Virus record (IMG/VR): IMGVR_UViG_3300025684_000015 | Coordinates: 1-64,000 of that record | DNA from: a virus | Reading direction: 5' to 3' (one strand) | Length of the DNA stretch: 64,000 bases | Shown: positions 675 through 53,700 of the stretch, in pieces | How positions within the stretch are numbered: position 1 is the first letter of the stretch | Layout of the letters: the number at the start of each line of letters is the position of its first letter | The notes under the pieces: generated by a model | Databases searched by the model: none | What the model saw: only the letters and a program-made list of their open reading frames with translations | What the model was told of the DNA's origin: nothing | Translations under genes and position numbers: made by a program

Positions 675-1793
675 CTATTTAGCTATGAGGATGATAGAAT
701 CATCATTAAGTCTACCATTAGGTACACTTGGTTTAGTCTTAATAGCATTTAGTATTTTGCTACGTTTGGCTGGAGTAGTCTTCATAATTTCAGGAAGTTG
801 TTCCATTGGTTTACGTAAGGTAAATGCTCTAGATTTTTCAGGATCAAAGTTTTGAATAGATGTACCTTTAATCTGAAAGCCTTTAGGATCTTCAGTAATA
901 TACTCCATGATCTTACGTGTCTTACAATTAAAGACATATAAAGATAATTTGCCAATAATTTGAGCAGGTGGAATGGAGACAATTTTATAGTCATTGTCTT
1001 CTTTCTTATATTTTACTCTAGAAACTTGTTTATCAATAGACATTGGTTTAATTGTACGAACTTTACGCGTAGCTTTTGAAGCATCACGTACTCGATCTAG
1101 ATCTGCCAACATCTTTTCACATTCCTTGACGCGGCGATTGAGCTCAGGCCGTGAAAGGTGTGAATACCCTTCAACCGCTTGTTCACATCTTTTATGGTAT
1201 GCATCGCTATAATCAAGCAACCATCCTTCAATCACCGTTTGAACTGGCTTAATAGCAGAACCAGCCAGCCCATGTACCTTAAATAAAGTGTACACATCAA
1301 TAGAGGCTTTTTCACCATCAATCCACTGATCTTCTAGATCATCAAGATCTGTCATAATAGTTGAATTGATTTTTCGTTGCAAGCGTTGTTGAGGAGAGAG
1401 ACTGACTACATTTGATGCGCTGTCAGTTTGTGCTTGCAACTTTTCATAATACATAGCTTTGCCAGGTTCAATTAGCTCAGCCATATGCCGATCCAGAGCA
1501 GCTTTCCAGTACTCTGTATCATCATCAATTGGTAAACCTGAATTATACCAGAAACAGGTAGCCGCTTGATAATACTTTGAGAACGTCCAATCAGGATGCA
1601 CTAAAATAAATTCAGCATCTTTCTTTGAGAAGTTCTTTTTAATATATGTACGATGCTGATCAACAGCATCTTTTTTAGTTAATTCAGTTTGAAAGTAATT
1701 CTGTACTGCTTTAAAGCCCTTTTCAATAGGTGCTGCATTAATACCAGTACGACGTGAAACTACTGTTTTCTTTTTACGTTTAACTAATCCCAT
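675..1793 (-). CDS. hypothetical protein, 372 aa
   Basis: Long ORF with GGAGAG SD and an upstream promoter; no function recognised. Confidence 0.8.
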   Translation of the reverse strand: MGLVKRKKKTVVSRRTGINAAPIEKGFKAVQNYFQTELTKKDAVDQHRTYIKKNFSKKDAEFILVHPDWTFSKYYQAATCFWYNSGLPIDDDTEYWKAALDRHMAELIEPGKAMYYEKLQAQTDSASNVVSLSPQQRLQRKINSTIMTDLDDLEDQWIDGEKASIDVYTLFKVHGLAGSAIKPVQTVIEGWLLDYSDAYHKRCEQAVEGYSHLSRPELNRRVKECEKMLADLDRVRDASKATRKVRTIKPMSIDKQVSRVKYKKEDNDYKIVSIPPAQIIGKLSLYVFNCKTRKIMEYITEDPKGFQIKGTSIQNFDPEKSRAFTLRKPMEQLPEIMKTTPAKRSKILNAIKTKPSVPNGRLNDDSIILIAK

Positions 1794-1871: not shown

Positions 1872-2192
1872 TTATATTTTTTGTGTAATGTATGGACCAG
1901 TTGTAACATTATGGCCAAAGTCTGGTTGCCAATGGGTTACTTCATTAGTAATAGTATATGTACCACACGTGCTCATGAACTGAGAATCACCTTTATAATA
2001 TCCCTTGTGATAACCTATATGCTTATTATAGTACCAAACTTCTTCATTGTTTGACGGAGTTTCGTGGCGTAATTCTCTCCATTGGATCATATCTACCATT
2101 TCTTTAAAGTTTGACATTTTTAAAATCTCCATCTCTACAACGTCACCATGGCCATCCGGGCATGACCATCCCGTCTTTATTGAATAGCTCAC
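1872..2192 (-). CDS. hypothetical protein (start may be downstream at MEILK)
   Basis: ORF track; fills the gap on the coding strand. Confidence 0.55.
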   Translation of the reverse strand: MSYSIKTGWSCPDGHGDVVEMEILKMSNFKEMVDMIQWRELRHETPSNNEEVWYYNKHIGYHKGYYKGDSQFMSTCGTYTITNEVTHWQPDFGHNVTTGPYITQKI

Positions 2193-2436
2193 AACTTACC
2201 GATTGAACCCGGTCCCATCTAAAGGTGCGCCAATCTTGAACATCAACATCCCATACAATACAAATGTCGTCATTACCTTTTCTTTCTTTTCCAGCTTCAG
2301 GCTTAGGGTATTTACCTTCTTCCATTGTGCATTTCATTACTCGAACTGAGCCATCAGCTTTAGTAAATGTAACCTCAATGACACCTAAGCTTAATTCTTC
2401 ACGAATTTGATCTTGAATAAATTTTTCAATAAACAT
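2143..2436 (-). CDS. small WYL-like/SH3-fold phage protein
   Basis: VTFTKADGSVRVMKCT...VWDVDVQDWRTFRWD pattern; GAGGA SD. Confidence 0.7.
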   Translation of the reverse strand: MFIEKFIQDQIREELSLGVIEVTFTKADGSVRVMKCTMEEGKYPKPEAGKERKGNDDICIVWDVDVQDWRTFRWDRVQSVSCELFNKDGMVMPGWPW

Positions 2437-2456
2437 ATCATATCCTCTTATAAAAT

Positions 2457-2830
2457 TAGGTGAGCAGTTTAGTGTAATGTCATGCTCAGGACTTCTTGTA
2501 GCTAGGATCGTAGCAAGTCTTACTACATCTATTGGTGTGGCTCCTAGCTGCGCACCAATTAGAAACTAGCCGCCCTCTGCAGAGGTTTGACTTTTAGCTA
2601 AGCGGAAAGGAAACGCTATCACCATGGTGTCGGCAAGACCATGCGTTCCTTAATTTTTATCCTGGACGAACGGACCATTCCCAGTTGAGTCTTTCTAATG
2701 AGGGCACTCTATAATTTCCCACCTGTGTCTTAAATTTAAAGTCGTTACAGGCTTAACCGCGTTATTTCGCTCGACTTCTCCTTTGAGGTACGTTTAGCAC
2801 TATTGCCAGGCTTTCCCTCGTTCGCCTATC
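2457..2830 (-). ncRNA. candidate structured non-coding RNA 3' of tRNA-Leu
   Basis: ORF-free and visibly GC-richer than its flanks; several hairpins and two pseudoknots readable by eye (see findings). Confidence 0.6.
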
Positions 2831-2831
2831 T

Positions 2832-2916
2832 TGGTACCCACGGCCAGACTCGAACTGGCACGCCATGCGGCTCTGGATTTTAAGTCCAGTATGTCTACCG
2901 ATTCCATCACGCGGGC
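2832..2916 (-). tRNA. tRNA-Leu(TAA)
   Basis: GCCCGCG acceptor, anticodon arm CTGGA-CTTAAAA-TCCAG, long variable arm, GTTCGAGT T-loop, encoded CCA. Confidence 0.95.
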
Positions 2917-3197
2917 TCATTATTATATTTTAAAAGCTGTAAAGCCTTTCCCATTACCCATGGACTTCGAAGTGGTAAAAAAGCTCCACTAGCTCCGGTC
3001 CAATCTTTGAATTCTCTATCATAAAATCCAATATTACAATCTTCAGGATTATTGTTCTGAAGATCAGCTAATTCATCTGCCCACCTTTGCCATGTAAAAT
3101 CATCAACAATATTATTGTCCAATTCATAGTAAATGCACGAATGAATAAGCATTTGCGCTCTACGTTGTCTAATAATTTCTTTAATTGATCTTTCCAT
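2907..3197 (-). CDS. stand-alone NAD-dependent DNA ligase domain Ia-like protein
   Basis: IYYELDNNIVDDFTWQRWADELADL resembles LigA domain Ia (YY..D.P.ISD..YD.L..EL); probable start MERS at 3197. Confidence 0.65.
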   Translation of the reverse strand: MERSIKEIIRQRRAQMLIHSCIYYELDNNIVDDFTWQRWADELADLQNNNPEDCNIGFYDREFKDWTGASGAFLPLRSPWVMGKALQLLKYNNEPA

Positions 3198-3204
3198 TAT
3201 GTAT

Positions 3205-3233
3205 ATTATACACCATAAAAAAGAGTTTGTAAA
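3205..3233 (-). promoter_or_regulatory. early-type promoter (probably leaderless transcript)
   Basis: TTTACA-17-TATAAT; the -10 ends 7 nt upstream of ATG 3197. Confidence 0.7.
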
Positions 3234-8983: not shown

Positions 8984-9692
8984 ATTCTTTGAATATCCCT
9001 TCTATAACATCTAGATCTGGAAGTGTACCTAACTCAAACCTAGCATTATCTGTTCCGTATAGTTTATGTATCAATCCAACAGATGCATAATAATCTAAAA
9101 ACTTCGTGCCATCTCCCCAGAGTTGACATGTATTCGTTGTTGTTACATGAGCAGCTGGGATACCATAGGCATGAGCAGCAATAATCCCATGTAAACTTGT
9201 TGACATGATAGTTACACAAGATGAAATTTCCTGTGCCGGATTTACTGGATTATCATCTACTAAATCGATATAGTGCCAACCATTTGTTTTTGCTAATTCC
9301 TTTGTATATTTATTCCGATGAGAATAGTGTGGGATAAATCCTACCTCATGTCTTTTTTCTACTGGTGGGATAAACCTTGGCAATAATAAAGCGGGGTCTC
9401 CGTAAATCTCAGGACACTCACCACCACATTTTAGAATACGATCGCGAGTGATTGGACCTCTGACAAACCGATAAATGTTAGATCGATCAAGATCTTCATT
9501 TTCACGAATACAGCCTGATCCAAGAATAGTAGCTCCATTTTGTGCTAACCTTATAATAGAGCCAGTTGCAAAGAAATTTGCTTGGTCTTGTTTATTGGTG
9601 TGTTTGAACTTAATACCATAATGATTTAAAATATTTGCTGTAAGTACATCCCCAAAGTTTTGAGGAACATCACCCCAGTAAAACGTTTTCAT
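8976..9692 (-). CDS. polysaccharide pyruvyl transferase
   Basis: NFGD, VRGPIT, GDPALL, IPHY, STSLHG...AYGIP motifs. Confidence 0.85.
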   Translation of the reverse strand: MKTFYWGDVPQNFGDVLTANILNHYGIKFKHTNKQDQANFFATGSIIRLAQNGATILGSGCIRENEDLDRSNIYRFVRGPITRDRILKCGGECPEIYGDPALLLPRFIPPVEKRHEVGFIPHYSHRNKYTKELAKTNGWHYIDLVDDNPVNPAQEISSCVTIMSTSLHGIIAAHAYGIPAAHVTTTNTCQLWGDGTKFLDYYASVGLIHKLYGTDNARFELGTLPDLDVIEGIFKEYV

Positions 9693-10369
9693 TATAAAAT
9701 TCCTTGATCAACCAATGCTTGATAGTTTTCTATTTTTTCTCTTTTTGGACCTTGTGGTGTAACCTTAGTCCTAATATGAATAAAACCAGCTTTTTCAGGA
9801 TTTGGCAAGAAAGAACATTGACACCATTTATTGTCTAAGTATTTATCTTTGTCTGCAAGATAGATTGAGCCAAAAACCATAAGTGTATGAAAAATTCCTT
9901 CATCTTCATAATGATATGGTTGATTATAATTATTCATCCAATTTTCGTTGCCACCAAGTTGTTTTCTTAGTCTTTGTCTTAACGGTAAATCCATTTTATA
10001 GATTGCACCACCCCAGTATGGCTTATCATTACTAGCTAACATTGGATACTGAGAGACAATTCGTTGGTGAAGTCTTTTTTGAACATCACCATATAATCCT
10101 ATACCATTTTTCTCAAAGACATTTTCGGTCATACCTTTCGGCGCAAACATATCAATATCAAGCATTAAAACATCGTCATATTTATCAAACTCTTCATCAA
10201 TCATATAAACTTTTTGACAAGGAGAAGTTAAATGTTTTCTAAATGGTTTACCAGTAATTAATCTATATTCAGCACCAACCATTTCAGCGTATGCTTGAAT
10301 GTTTTCTATAGACAATTTATCTAATGGTCTAAGGTCACCGTCAAAGTGTTGTAAAATAATATTAGACAT
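9692..10369 (-). CDS. GT-A fold glycosyltransferase-like
   Basis: LDID DxD; EDEG; similar to neighbouring GTs. Confidence 0.6.
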   Translation of the reverse strand: MSNIILQHFDGDLRPLDKLSIENIQAYAEMVGAEYRLITGKPFRKHLTSPCQKVYMIDEEFDKYDDVLMLDIDMFAPKGMTENVFEKNGIGLYGDVQKRLHQRIVSQYPMLASNDKPYWGGAIYKMDLPLRQRLRKQLGGNENWMNNYNQPYHYEDEGIFHTLMVFGSIYLADKDKYLDNKWCQCSFLPNPEKAGFIHIRTKVTPQGPKREKIENYQALVDQGIL

Positions 10370-53309: not shown

Positions 53310-53554
53310 AAACGAATGGTAGGTTATTCTGTTACTAGGAAACCTACCGAAACCCTATCCGACTATGCTGCTAGAGCGTAATCTTGAGGAGCAAAGTTAT
53401 CGTTTGCATTTACTTTTGTGATTCTCCGCTGCCTTCACGTATCTGTCGATCCTATTTCGCCCCCATCATAAGCACACTCAGTAAATGTGTTTATGGTGGA
53501 GGCGGTGGGTACTGCCCCCACGTCCAGCCTACATCCATCCAGTTTCACTGAATC
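53310..53554 (-). ncRNA. ssrA: circularly permuted (two-piece) tmRNA; tag ANDNFAPQDYALAA
   Basis: Acceptor piece ...GGGGGCAGTACCCACCGCCTCCACCA ends at 53494; coding piece starts GGGGGCGAAATAGGATCGAC at 53464; G3:U70 pair; tag ORF 53407-53363; outer ends approximate. Confidence 0.93.
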
Positions 53555-53559
53555 ATTTT

Positions 53560-53567
53560 TATTTATA
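53560..53567 (-). promoter_or_regulatory. T4-type late promoter for tmRNA
   Basis: TATAAATA immediately upstream of the acceptor piece. Confidence 0.75.
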
Positions 53568-53571
53568 CTAC

Positions 53572-53700
53572 TTACTTACAAAGATCTTCATACTTCGTGG
53601 AGTGTACTCTATGTTTTGACATGTCTCTACCTAAATATCCTGGCGTTTTTTCTTTACTATTAAACATTTTAGATAATAACTTAACAAGTTTTTTGAGCAT
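53572..53700 (-). CDS. 42-aa peptide (not in track)
   Basis: MLKKLVKLLSKMFNSKEKTPGYLGRDMSKHRVHSTKYEDLCK; GGAGAG SD; promoter upstream. Confidence 0.5.
   Translation of the reverse strand: MLKKLVKLLSKMFNSKEKTPGYLGRDMSKHRVHSTKYEDLCK

Follow-up and report, generated by a model that had tools for sequence, protein, structure and literature searches.

A predicted 91-nt double pseudoknot within a chain of RNA modules behind a tRNA gene of a marine T4-like phage

The stretch behind tRNA-Leu

The DNA analysed, called the window below, is a stretch of 64,000 nucleotides, positions 1 to 64,000 of record IMGVR_UViG_3300025684_000015. This record is a 97.9-kb IMG/VR virus, and its gene content matches that of the pelagimyophage/Melnitz group, which is T4-like and has a two-piece tmRNA. 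A permuted two-piece tmRNA of the alpha type, encoded by the phage, was found at 53318-53586 on the minus strand (RF01849, 102.6 bits; RF04321, 93.8 bits). The window was scanned with the 4227 models of Rfam 15; at the gathering score, three tRNAs and the permuted tmRNA were recovered over its length, and nothing else.

The features of the locus are listed in Table 1. An earlier note on this DNA, made from the letters alone, had placed a structured RNA of about 375 nt at 2457-2830, directly 3′ of a tRNA-Leu, free of open reading frames and richer in G+C than its flanks. On these points it was right. The stretch begins where tRNA-Leu(UAA) ends on the minus strand, no credible ORF is present in 2457-2830, nor in the whole 395 nt that separate the tRNA from the ATG at 2436, and the G+C content is 0.45-0.49, versus 0.31-0.40 in the flanks and about 0.32 in the genome. 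The note had also been unable to assign the RNA to a family, and this stands as well: in region 2300-3000, no Rfam family apart from the tRNA reached the gathering score, and the other rows obtained at E≤10 were at chance level only.

Table 1. Features on the minus strand around the RNA stretch (window positions)
Feature	Position	Strand	Basis
Early-type promoter, TTTACA, 17 nt, TATAAT	3205..3233	-	consensus scan, 11/12 matches
tRNA-Leu, anticodon UAA, CCA encoded	2832..2916	-	ARAGORN; Rfam tRNA 55.3 bits
PK0, 5′ pseudoknot: UAGGC/GCCUG and GAGG/CCUC, small hairpin between	2785..2828	-	relatives
PK1 of the core	2721..2776	-	alignments A1, A2, A4 and pair counts
PK2 of the core, always abutting PK1, A-rich crossing loop	2686..2720	-	alignments and pair counts
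PK3, second copy of the PK2 design: CUGG/CCAG and CGUUC/GAACG, A-rich crossing loop	2644..2684	-	
PK4: AUGGU/ACCAU and GCCG/CGGC, inner hairpin CCUC/GAGG	2569..2642	-	
PK5: 7-bp hairpin, loop able to pair 8 bp downstream across a 7-bp hairpin	2500..2559	-	
PK6: GUC/GAC hairpin, 8-nt loop pairing with downstream UGCUCA	2461..2492	-	
WYL_2 (Sm-like SH3) protein gene, 97 aa, first gene behind the RNA chain	2143..2436	-	Pfam PF10902, E=3.8e-13
Promoter of gene X	1851-1823	-	promoter scan
Gene X, PHROG 11903, 372 aa, basic N-terminus	675..1793	-	PHROG match, E=4e-67

From its position, the early-type promoter should drive, besides a 92-aa ORF and tRNA-Leu, the RNA chain with the pair of ORFs behind it, namely the WYL_2 gene and an ORF of 81 aa. 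No terminator-like site was found on the minus strand between this promoter and position 1823, where the next promoter ends, so that the chain is predicted to belong to an early polycistronic RNA. Excision of tRNA-Leu from such a transcript would leave the chain ahead of two small ORFs. The 92-aa ORF (2907-3197, minus strand) encodes the Nlig-Ia domain found at the N-terminus of DNA ligases (Pfam, E=9e-26), and since its stop codon lies within the first bases of tRNA-Leu (2916-2907), excision of the tRNA would remove the stop.

On the minus strand, seven consecutive H-type pseudoknot modules, PK0 to PK6, can be read in 2831-2461, the chain starting at the base that follows the CCA of tRNA-Leu. 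They are built alike, each with two stems, a short loop between these and a crossing loop rich in A. The earlier note had read the stretch as an RNA with two pseudoknots, which may be one molecule or several. Its structured, non-coding nature was borne out; a single molecule with two knots was not. In the closest relative (L003), which keeps the order tRNA-Leu, RNA and 97-aa gene (68% identity), only the first ~200 nt and the last hairpin are matched, and ~150 nt of the 3′ half are absent. Modules are moreover reordered from phage to phage, one of them being for instance upstream of the core in L157 and downstream of it in L019. The missing ~150 nt and the reordering rule out a single 375-nt RNA, and the differing orders and combinations indicate that the modules are independent units, "several" being therefore the right term of the alternative. 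The best-conserved part is formed by the 5′ 190 nt, which include the core and had been overlooked in the earlier reading.

Examined as a single sequence, the stretch is ordinary. Its minimum free energy has a z-score of +0.76, and possible H-type pseudoknots are no more numerous than in dinucleotide shuffles. As these statistics are no better than chance, the case for structure rests on the comparison with relatives.

Fold, distribution and surroundings of the 91-nt core

The core is a 91-nt double pseudoknot made of five helices (2776-2686, minus strand). In PK1, P1 (5 bp) joins 2776-2772 to 2744-2740, and as the 3′ strand of P1 lies within the loop of P3 (6 bp, 2752-2747 with 2726-2721), a first pseudoknot results. 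P2, a hairpin of variable length, pairs 2770-2768 with 2761-2759, and the junction of PK1 reads GGUUAA. In PK2, P4 (GGG/CCC) pairs 2720-2718 with 2704-2702, while bases of its loop pair with bases located past the A-rich stretch to form P5 (2710-2706 with 2690-2686), which creates the second pseudoknot.

Homologues were gathered and their covariation was tested, as the earlier note had suggested, in two sets: 79 distinct IMG/VR viral sequences (alignments A1 and A2) and 57 distinct metagenome sequences (A4). In A2, 93.1% of the alignment cells were paired, versus 78.7% in shuffles; in A4, the values were 92.2% and 79.9%. None of 500 shuffles reached the observed value in either set. In slid controls (A1, A2 and A4), 31-52% of the cells were paired. 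Changes on both sides were seen for 15 of the 22 pairs, in A2 and A4 alike. Within PK1, where 97-100% of the cells are paired, they concern 4 of 5 pairs in P1, all 3 in P2 and 3 of 6 in P3. All 5 pairs of P5 changed on both sides (GAG/CUC, GGG/CCC, CGUUC/GAACG, GAAGG/CCUUC, GUUGG/CCAAC and others), and P4 is invariant except for a G-U in 8 sequences. P1, P2, P3 and P5 thus covary, entire helices being swapped at times, as with GUCG/CGAC replaced by GAGG/CCUC or CCCG/CGGG. An invariant G-U in P3 identifies the minus strand as the one that folds. We consider the predicted fold of the core to be proven by this covariation.

While the helices vary, about 45 of the 91 positions are conserved at 90% or more, a figure that is partly due to the patterns used in the searches. 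Any one pattern constrained a single half of the motif, however, and the unconstrained half was still conserved. At one locus (L104:1855-1988, minus strand), a 22-nt hairpin is inserted into the first loop of PK2, which shows that this loop tolerates insertions.

Pattern scans followed by nhmmer detected the core in more than 100 IMG/VR viral contigs, a lower bound, and a stricter pattern detected it in at least 119 marine metagenome contigs, Tara Oceans assemblies included. The core is abundant in ocean viromes, in phages akin to those that infect SAR11 and OM43. One copy was present in each of the five phage records searched (the phage's own record and four long ones), one of which is a complete 152.7-kb genome. 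A single contig, L207, carries two identical inverted copies (1517-1629, plus strand, and 9606-9718, minus strand), which may reflect either an artefact of assembly or a true inverted duplication. No match was obtained by blastn against 50,697 GenBank phage records with three different representatives of the core. In 401 alphaproteobacterial genomes no full-length core was present, only chance fragments of 21-27 nt, and a host origin was discarded, as the pattern matches listed for prokaryote genomes were all due to chance and none fitted the profile. A literature search on the words of the core motif returned unrelated papers only. To judge from the sequences collected, the core defines an RNA family that is strongly conserved and present in single copy, its carriers being uncultured marine T4-like phages of the pelagimyophage/Melnitz type. 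It is uncatalogued in Rfam 15: nine other diverse loci bearing the core, scanned at E≤5, yielded tRNAs and chance-level rows only.

The flanks of the core differ wholly from locus to locus. It has the same orientation as all 85 tRNAs predicted nearby. A tRNA (tRNA-Leu UAA, tRNA-Arg UCU or tRNA-Trp) ends at most 70 nt upstream in 14 loci, and one starts 2-11 nt downstream in 12 loci; the upstream distances range from 5 to ~76 nt, and are of 5-9 nt in 6 loci. tRNA-Arg(UCU) is among the commonest tRNA neighbours. In about 19 loci, an extended −10 element ends 11-21 nt before P1, which would place the 5′ end of the RNA some 4-14 nt away from the core. A start codon follows within ~40 nt in 28 loci. 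The core is elsewhere preceded by a gene and a hairpin rather than by an RNA 5′ end, or has a tRNA on either side and no ORF in the vicinity.

The genes found behind the core include gene X (PHROG 11903, 21 loci), a Cas4-like nuclease (7 loci), PPK2, a methyltransferase and DUF6267. The core stands directly ahead of gene X in the 21 relatives concerned, and in 43 of 78 loci gene X is found downstream of it, 16 nt to 5 kb away, sharing the strand of the motif in 42 of these 43; the exception is the contig with two inverted copies, L207. Gene X belongs to no Pfam family and matches no PDB entry by sequence or profile, and its structural model (pLDDT 76) retrieved nothing with Foldseek at E≤0.001. 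Its N-terminus is rich in arginine and lysine (L015, L018 and L022, for example), and in many relatives its start codon lies in a small conserved hairpin with the ribosome-binding site in the loop.

The WYL_2/SH3 protein encoded next to the chain had been put forward in the earlier note as a possible partner of the RNA. We rejected it, as the linkage is not conserved: a homologue occurs in only 7 of 78 motif loci, at varying positions, and the RNA is present at only 2 of 10 WYL_2 loci.

Modules around the core

The accessory modules were compared between loci. PK0 is kept after tRNA-Leu or tRNA-Trp in L003, L110, L184 and L131; in L124 and L197 its architecture is the same with a second helix that is wholly different (GGACC/GGUCC). 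We hold with moderate confidence, the sequences being few, that PK0 is a conserved structure. PK3 is nearly a copy of the PK2 variant found in loci of the L157 type. It is located directly behind the core in L003, L020, L021, L032 and L052, with one compensatory change (CAUUC/GAAUG). PK4 carries an insertion of ~30 nt specific to this phage, and nhmmer found its long form at no other locus. A short form is present in L032 and L029, where all three pairings are kept as AAGGU/ACCUU, GCCG/CGGC (unchanged) and CCCG/CGGG. For PK5 (ATTGGTG.../AGCTAGGA...), a candidate module only, the complementarity is exact in the sequence, and no homologue was found outside this phage. The PK6 hairpin recurs in seven loci (L003, L021, L126, L187, L158, L019 and L104) and its loop-to-tail pairs covary (GAGC/GCUC, AAGC/GCUU, GAGU/ACUC). 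It is followed by an A/U-rich spacer, a ribosome-binding site and the ATG at 2436.

Several helices had been read by eye in the earlier note, and fared unequally. The helix ATGGT/ACCAT is supported by the compensatory change in L032 and L029, where the hairpin CCTC-TGCA-GAGG is also kept, in the CCCG/CGGG form, and the terminal pseudoknot recurs in 7 further loci, where two of its positions covary. The outer helix GGAACGC/GCGTTTCC is contradicted: GCGTTTCC, the partner strand, sits in the insertion specific to this phage, and in six phages the bases of GGAACGC pair instead with an upstream CGUUC (as CAUUC/GAAUG in L003 and L020). TAGCT/GGCTA is weakened, as it lies partly in the phage-specific insertion and the conserved pairing at this place is GCCG/CGGC.

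Other conserved elements surround the core in the relatives. A recurrent module just 5′ of it (L025:7660-7740, minus strand; L014:3850-3930, plus strand; L033, L012 and others) consists of a long hairpin with a C/U-rich, nearly invariant loop of ~25 nt. Conserved modules are also seen 3′ of the core (L157:5312-5390, plus strand; L025:7460-7548, minus strand; L184, L110 and L020). One has a hairpin followed by the word GCUCUGCU; others have hairpins with an 8-nt loop (CCUUAAUA-like), then a G+C-rich hairpin. These 3′ modules are probably separate uncatalogued RNA motifs. The loop of the 5′ hairpin could pair with GGAG-rich modules that these loci carry 3′ of the core.

Relation to known RNAs and possible functions

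Among known RNAs, RNase P RNA, group I introns, tmRNA pieces, 6S RNA and GOLLD, ROOL and manA were all discarded for want of an Rfam match. The last three had been invoked as analogies in the earlier note, together with T4 RNA C and D, for which a likeness of position remains. The layout of PK6, with a knot, an A/U-rich spacer and a ribosome-binding site, is that of the T4 gene 32 leader, an autoregulatory and stabilising operator formed by an H-type pseudoknot near the 5′ end of an early/middle message. A PK6-like knot shows the same layout ahead of gene X in L126 and L187. The two differ in that the knot precedes WYL_2 here and gene X in relatives, with no sequence likeness to the T4 operator; in L032, gp32 lies two genes further on. 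The core itself differs from the gene 32 leader by being a double knot, which is also found among tRNAs.

We tentatively propose, on the basis of its position, that the core works in cis, as a nuclease-resistant leader or as a processing module recognised by a protein. Once tRNA-Leu is excised, the pseudoknot chain would form the 5′ end of the remaining message, which carries the WYL_2 gene and the 81-aa ORF, and in the relatives transcription starting at a promoter would likewise put the core at the 5′ end of the RNA. At that end, a protein would recognise the knots, which are compact and keep invariant unpaired bases. In this cis role the knots, protected from nucleases, would set the stability, perhaps also the translation or read-through, of the RNA behind, and the accessory knots PK0 and PK3-PK6 would be exchangeable units of the same design. 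The single copy, the conserved unpaired bases and the co-orientation with neighbours suggest that the RNA is specifically recognised, a protein being the likeliest partner. Several points speak against a leader. A plain hairpin would do for 5′ protection, so that a conserved core of such elaboration hints at a more specific role; a stabiliser of a general kind is expected at several operons, not once per genome; and loci exist where a gene and a hairpin, not an RNA 5′ end, lie upstream of the core.

A free stable small RNA, cut out by tRNA-processing enzymes and acting in trans on a phage or host protein, is nearly as likely as the leader reading, if doubtful in itself. It fits better than a leader the loci where the core stands between two tRNAs with no ORF nearby. 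It also agrees with the single copy per genome, with the tRNAs that abut the core, on its downstream side in 12 loci (at 2-11 nt) and on its upstream side in 6 (at 5-9 nt), and with the conservation of about half of the positions despite helix variation. Such an RNA would be the counterpart of T4 rnaC (species 1) and rnaD (species 2). Since the sequencing of these two in the 1970s, phage tRNA clusters have been known to contain stable RNAs with no assigned function. Like the core, they are non-coding and belong to a tRNA cluster on the same strand (NC_000866, 70908-71171), rnaD starting 1 nt after tRNA-Arg(UCU), a frequent neighbour of the core, and rnaC 6 nt further on. Likeness in sequence or structure is undetectable, however: when the tRNA region of T4 was searched with a model of the core (R1) and the filters off, the best score was 5.7 bits, at neither rnaC nor rnaD. 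T4 rnaC ends in a tRNA-like T arm that the core does not have, and the core, unlike the two T4 RNAs, also serves by position as 5′ leader of protein genes. The 28 loci where a start codon follows within ~40 nt, with no evident terminator or processing signal, do not suit a free RNA, nor does the lack of a consistently co-occurring partner gene. As a 91-nt, single-copy RNA whose fold is backed by covariation, the core offers a well-defined counterpart to rnaC and rnaD.

That the core represents a new RNA class with an activity of its own, either a ribozyme maturing precursors or a put/EAR-like antitermination element acting across the early and tRNA region, appears rather unlikely. For antitermination, the RNA would modify the polymerase in the manner of HK022 put or of the Bacillus EAR element and allow read-through across the structured region of tRNAs and leader into gene X, gp33 and gp32. 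In L032, gene X is followed by a gp33-like gene and then by the gp32 gene. Where gene X is present the core lies upstream of it on the same strand (42 of 43 loci, L207 excepted, at 16 nt to 5 kb), often at the very start of an early transcript, and its single copy, its conserved unpaired bases and the arginine/lysine-rich N-terminus of gene X would all suit such a role. We nonetheless regard it as unlikely, given that a terminator scan of the minus strand of the window found none, that several lineages with the core have no gene X within 5-9 kb, and that no similarity to the Rfam put or EAR models was detected. A new class of self-cleaving ribozymes that trims tRNA or mRNA precursors is quite unlikely. 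The compact double-pseudoknot topology with many invariant junction bases, its portability between contexts and its vicinity to phage tRNAs, reminiscent of the HDV-like theta ribozymes (PMC10879173), are consistent with catalysis. On the other side, the core matches no ribozyme family of Rfam 15 and has another topology than HDV-like ribozymes, no candidate site of cleavage that is conserved could be identified, and the spacing to tRNAs varies (2-11 nt downstream, 5 to ~76 nt upstream).

Theta ribozymes sit 3′ of phage tRNAs (PMC10879173), and PK0 has some likeness to them: it is small and pseudoknotted, starts 3-4 nt after the CCA of tRNA-Leu, is found directly 3′ of tRNA-Trp in L110 and L184, and has its helices placed like P1, P2 and P4 of HDV-like ribozymes. 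It has neither P3/L3/P1.1 nor the G-U at the base of P1, and no Rfam HDV match; with 4 bases only between the P2-like strand and the P1-like 3′ strand, there is no room for P3/L3.

A riboswitch aptamer, formed by the core or by PK3 as a reduced relative of the glutamine riboswitch, is very unlikely in our opinion. H-type pseudoknots with an A-rich crossing loop do occur in preQ1-I, SAM-II and similar classes, and the core occupies a 5′ UTR in 28 loci. PK3 shares with the glutamine riboswitch (RF01739, glnA RNA), both being marine, the CGUUC/GAACG closing stem and its flanks (2640-2674), and a profile-HMM tool reported "glutamine riboswitches" in relatives of this phage (PMC9004378). Yet RF01739, the only Rfam model to find an echo in PK3, scored 12.5 bits there, with E=2 when 95 nt were searched and with a gathering score of 35 to reach, and 16.6 bits at best in five phage records, again below the cut-off of 35. 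The three-stem junction of RF01739 is absent, its two inner stems being missing: segments of 14 and 18 model positions are reduced to 8 and 7 bases. Moreover, the CC strand of PK3 pairs upstream, which makes another topology. No nitrogen-metabolism gene was found near the RNA, where the neighbours are tRNAs, WYL_2, PHROG 11903, the Cas4-like nuclease and others. More generally, the diversity of the downstream genes, which are mutually unrelated, the many copies preceding tRNAs and the absence of an expression platform overlapping the ribosome-binding site argue against a metabolite sensor. An echo of the PK3 type may explain the reports of glutamine riboswitches in related phages, and caution is called for, as sub-threshold calls of this kind in such phages may be pseudoknot modules like PK3. 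The least probable of the readings weighed, and a very remote one, is an anti-defence decoy, either a mimic of type III antitoxins or a bait for tRNA-directed nucleases. Type III antitoxins are pseudoknot RNAs, and their mimicry by a phage is known (ToxI, phage PhiTE); the chain is also tied to tRNAs and to predicted early transcription. ToxI-like arrays are made of near-identical repeats of ~36 nt, whereas Tandem Repeats Finder found no tandem repeats in 2400-2950, the core is one unit per genome, and the neighbouring proteins match no PADLOC family.

The core adds to the RNA families that annotation pipelines currently overlook, and being short and present in one copy, it suits work with a synthetic transcript. 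A published catalogue (PMC10690425), in which 8,495 candidate structured RNAs are listed without names, draws on the same source data, IMG/VR, and includes covarying intergenic phage RNAs, some of them next to tRNAs or before gp32. Nothing resembling the core is described in the main text of that paper, and the family may already be listed there without a name. Two minor observations are added. In L112 (390-1424, minus strand) and in L123, the core is upstream of a DUF6267 protein with a KxDG-like ligase/nucleotidyltransferase motif. The junction of the core, compared by eye only, resembles words of helices 35-36 of 16S rRNA.
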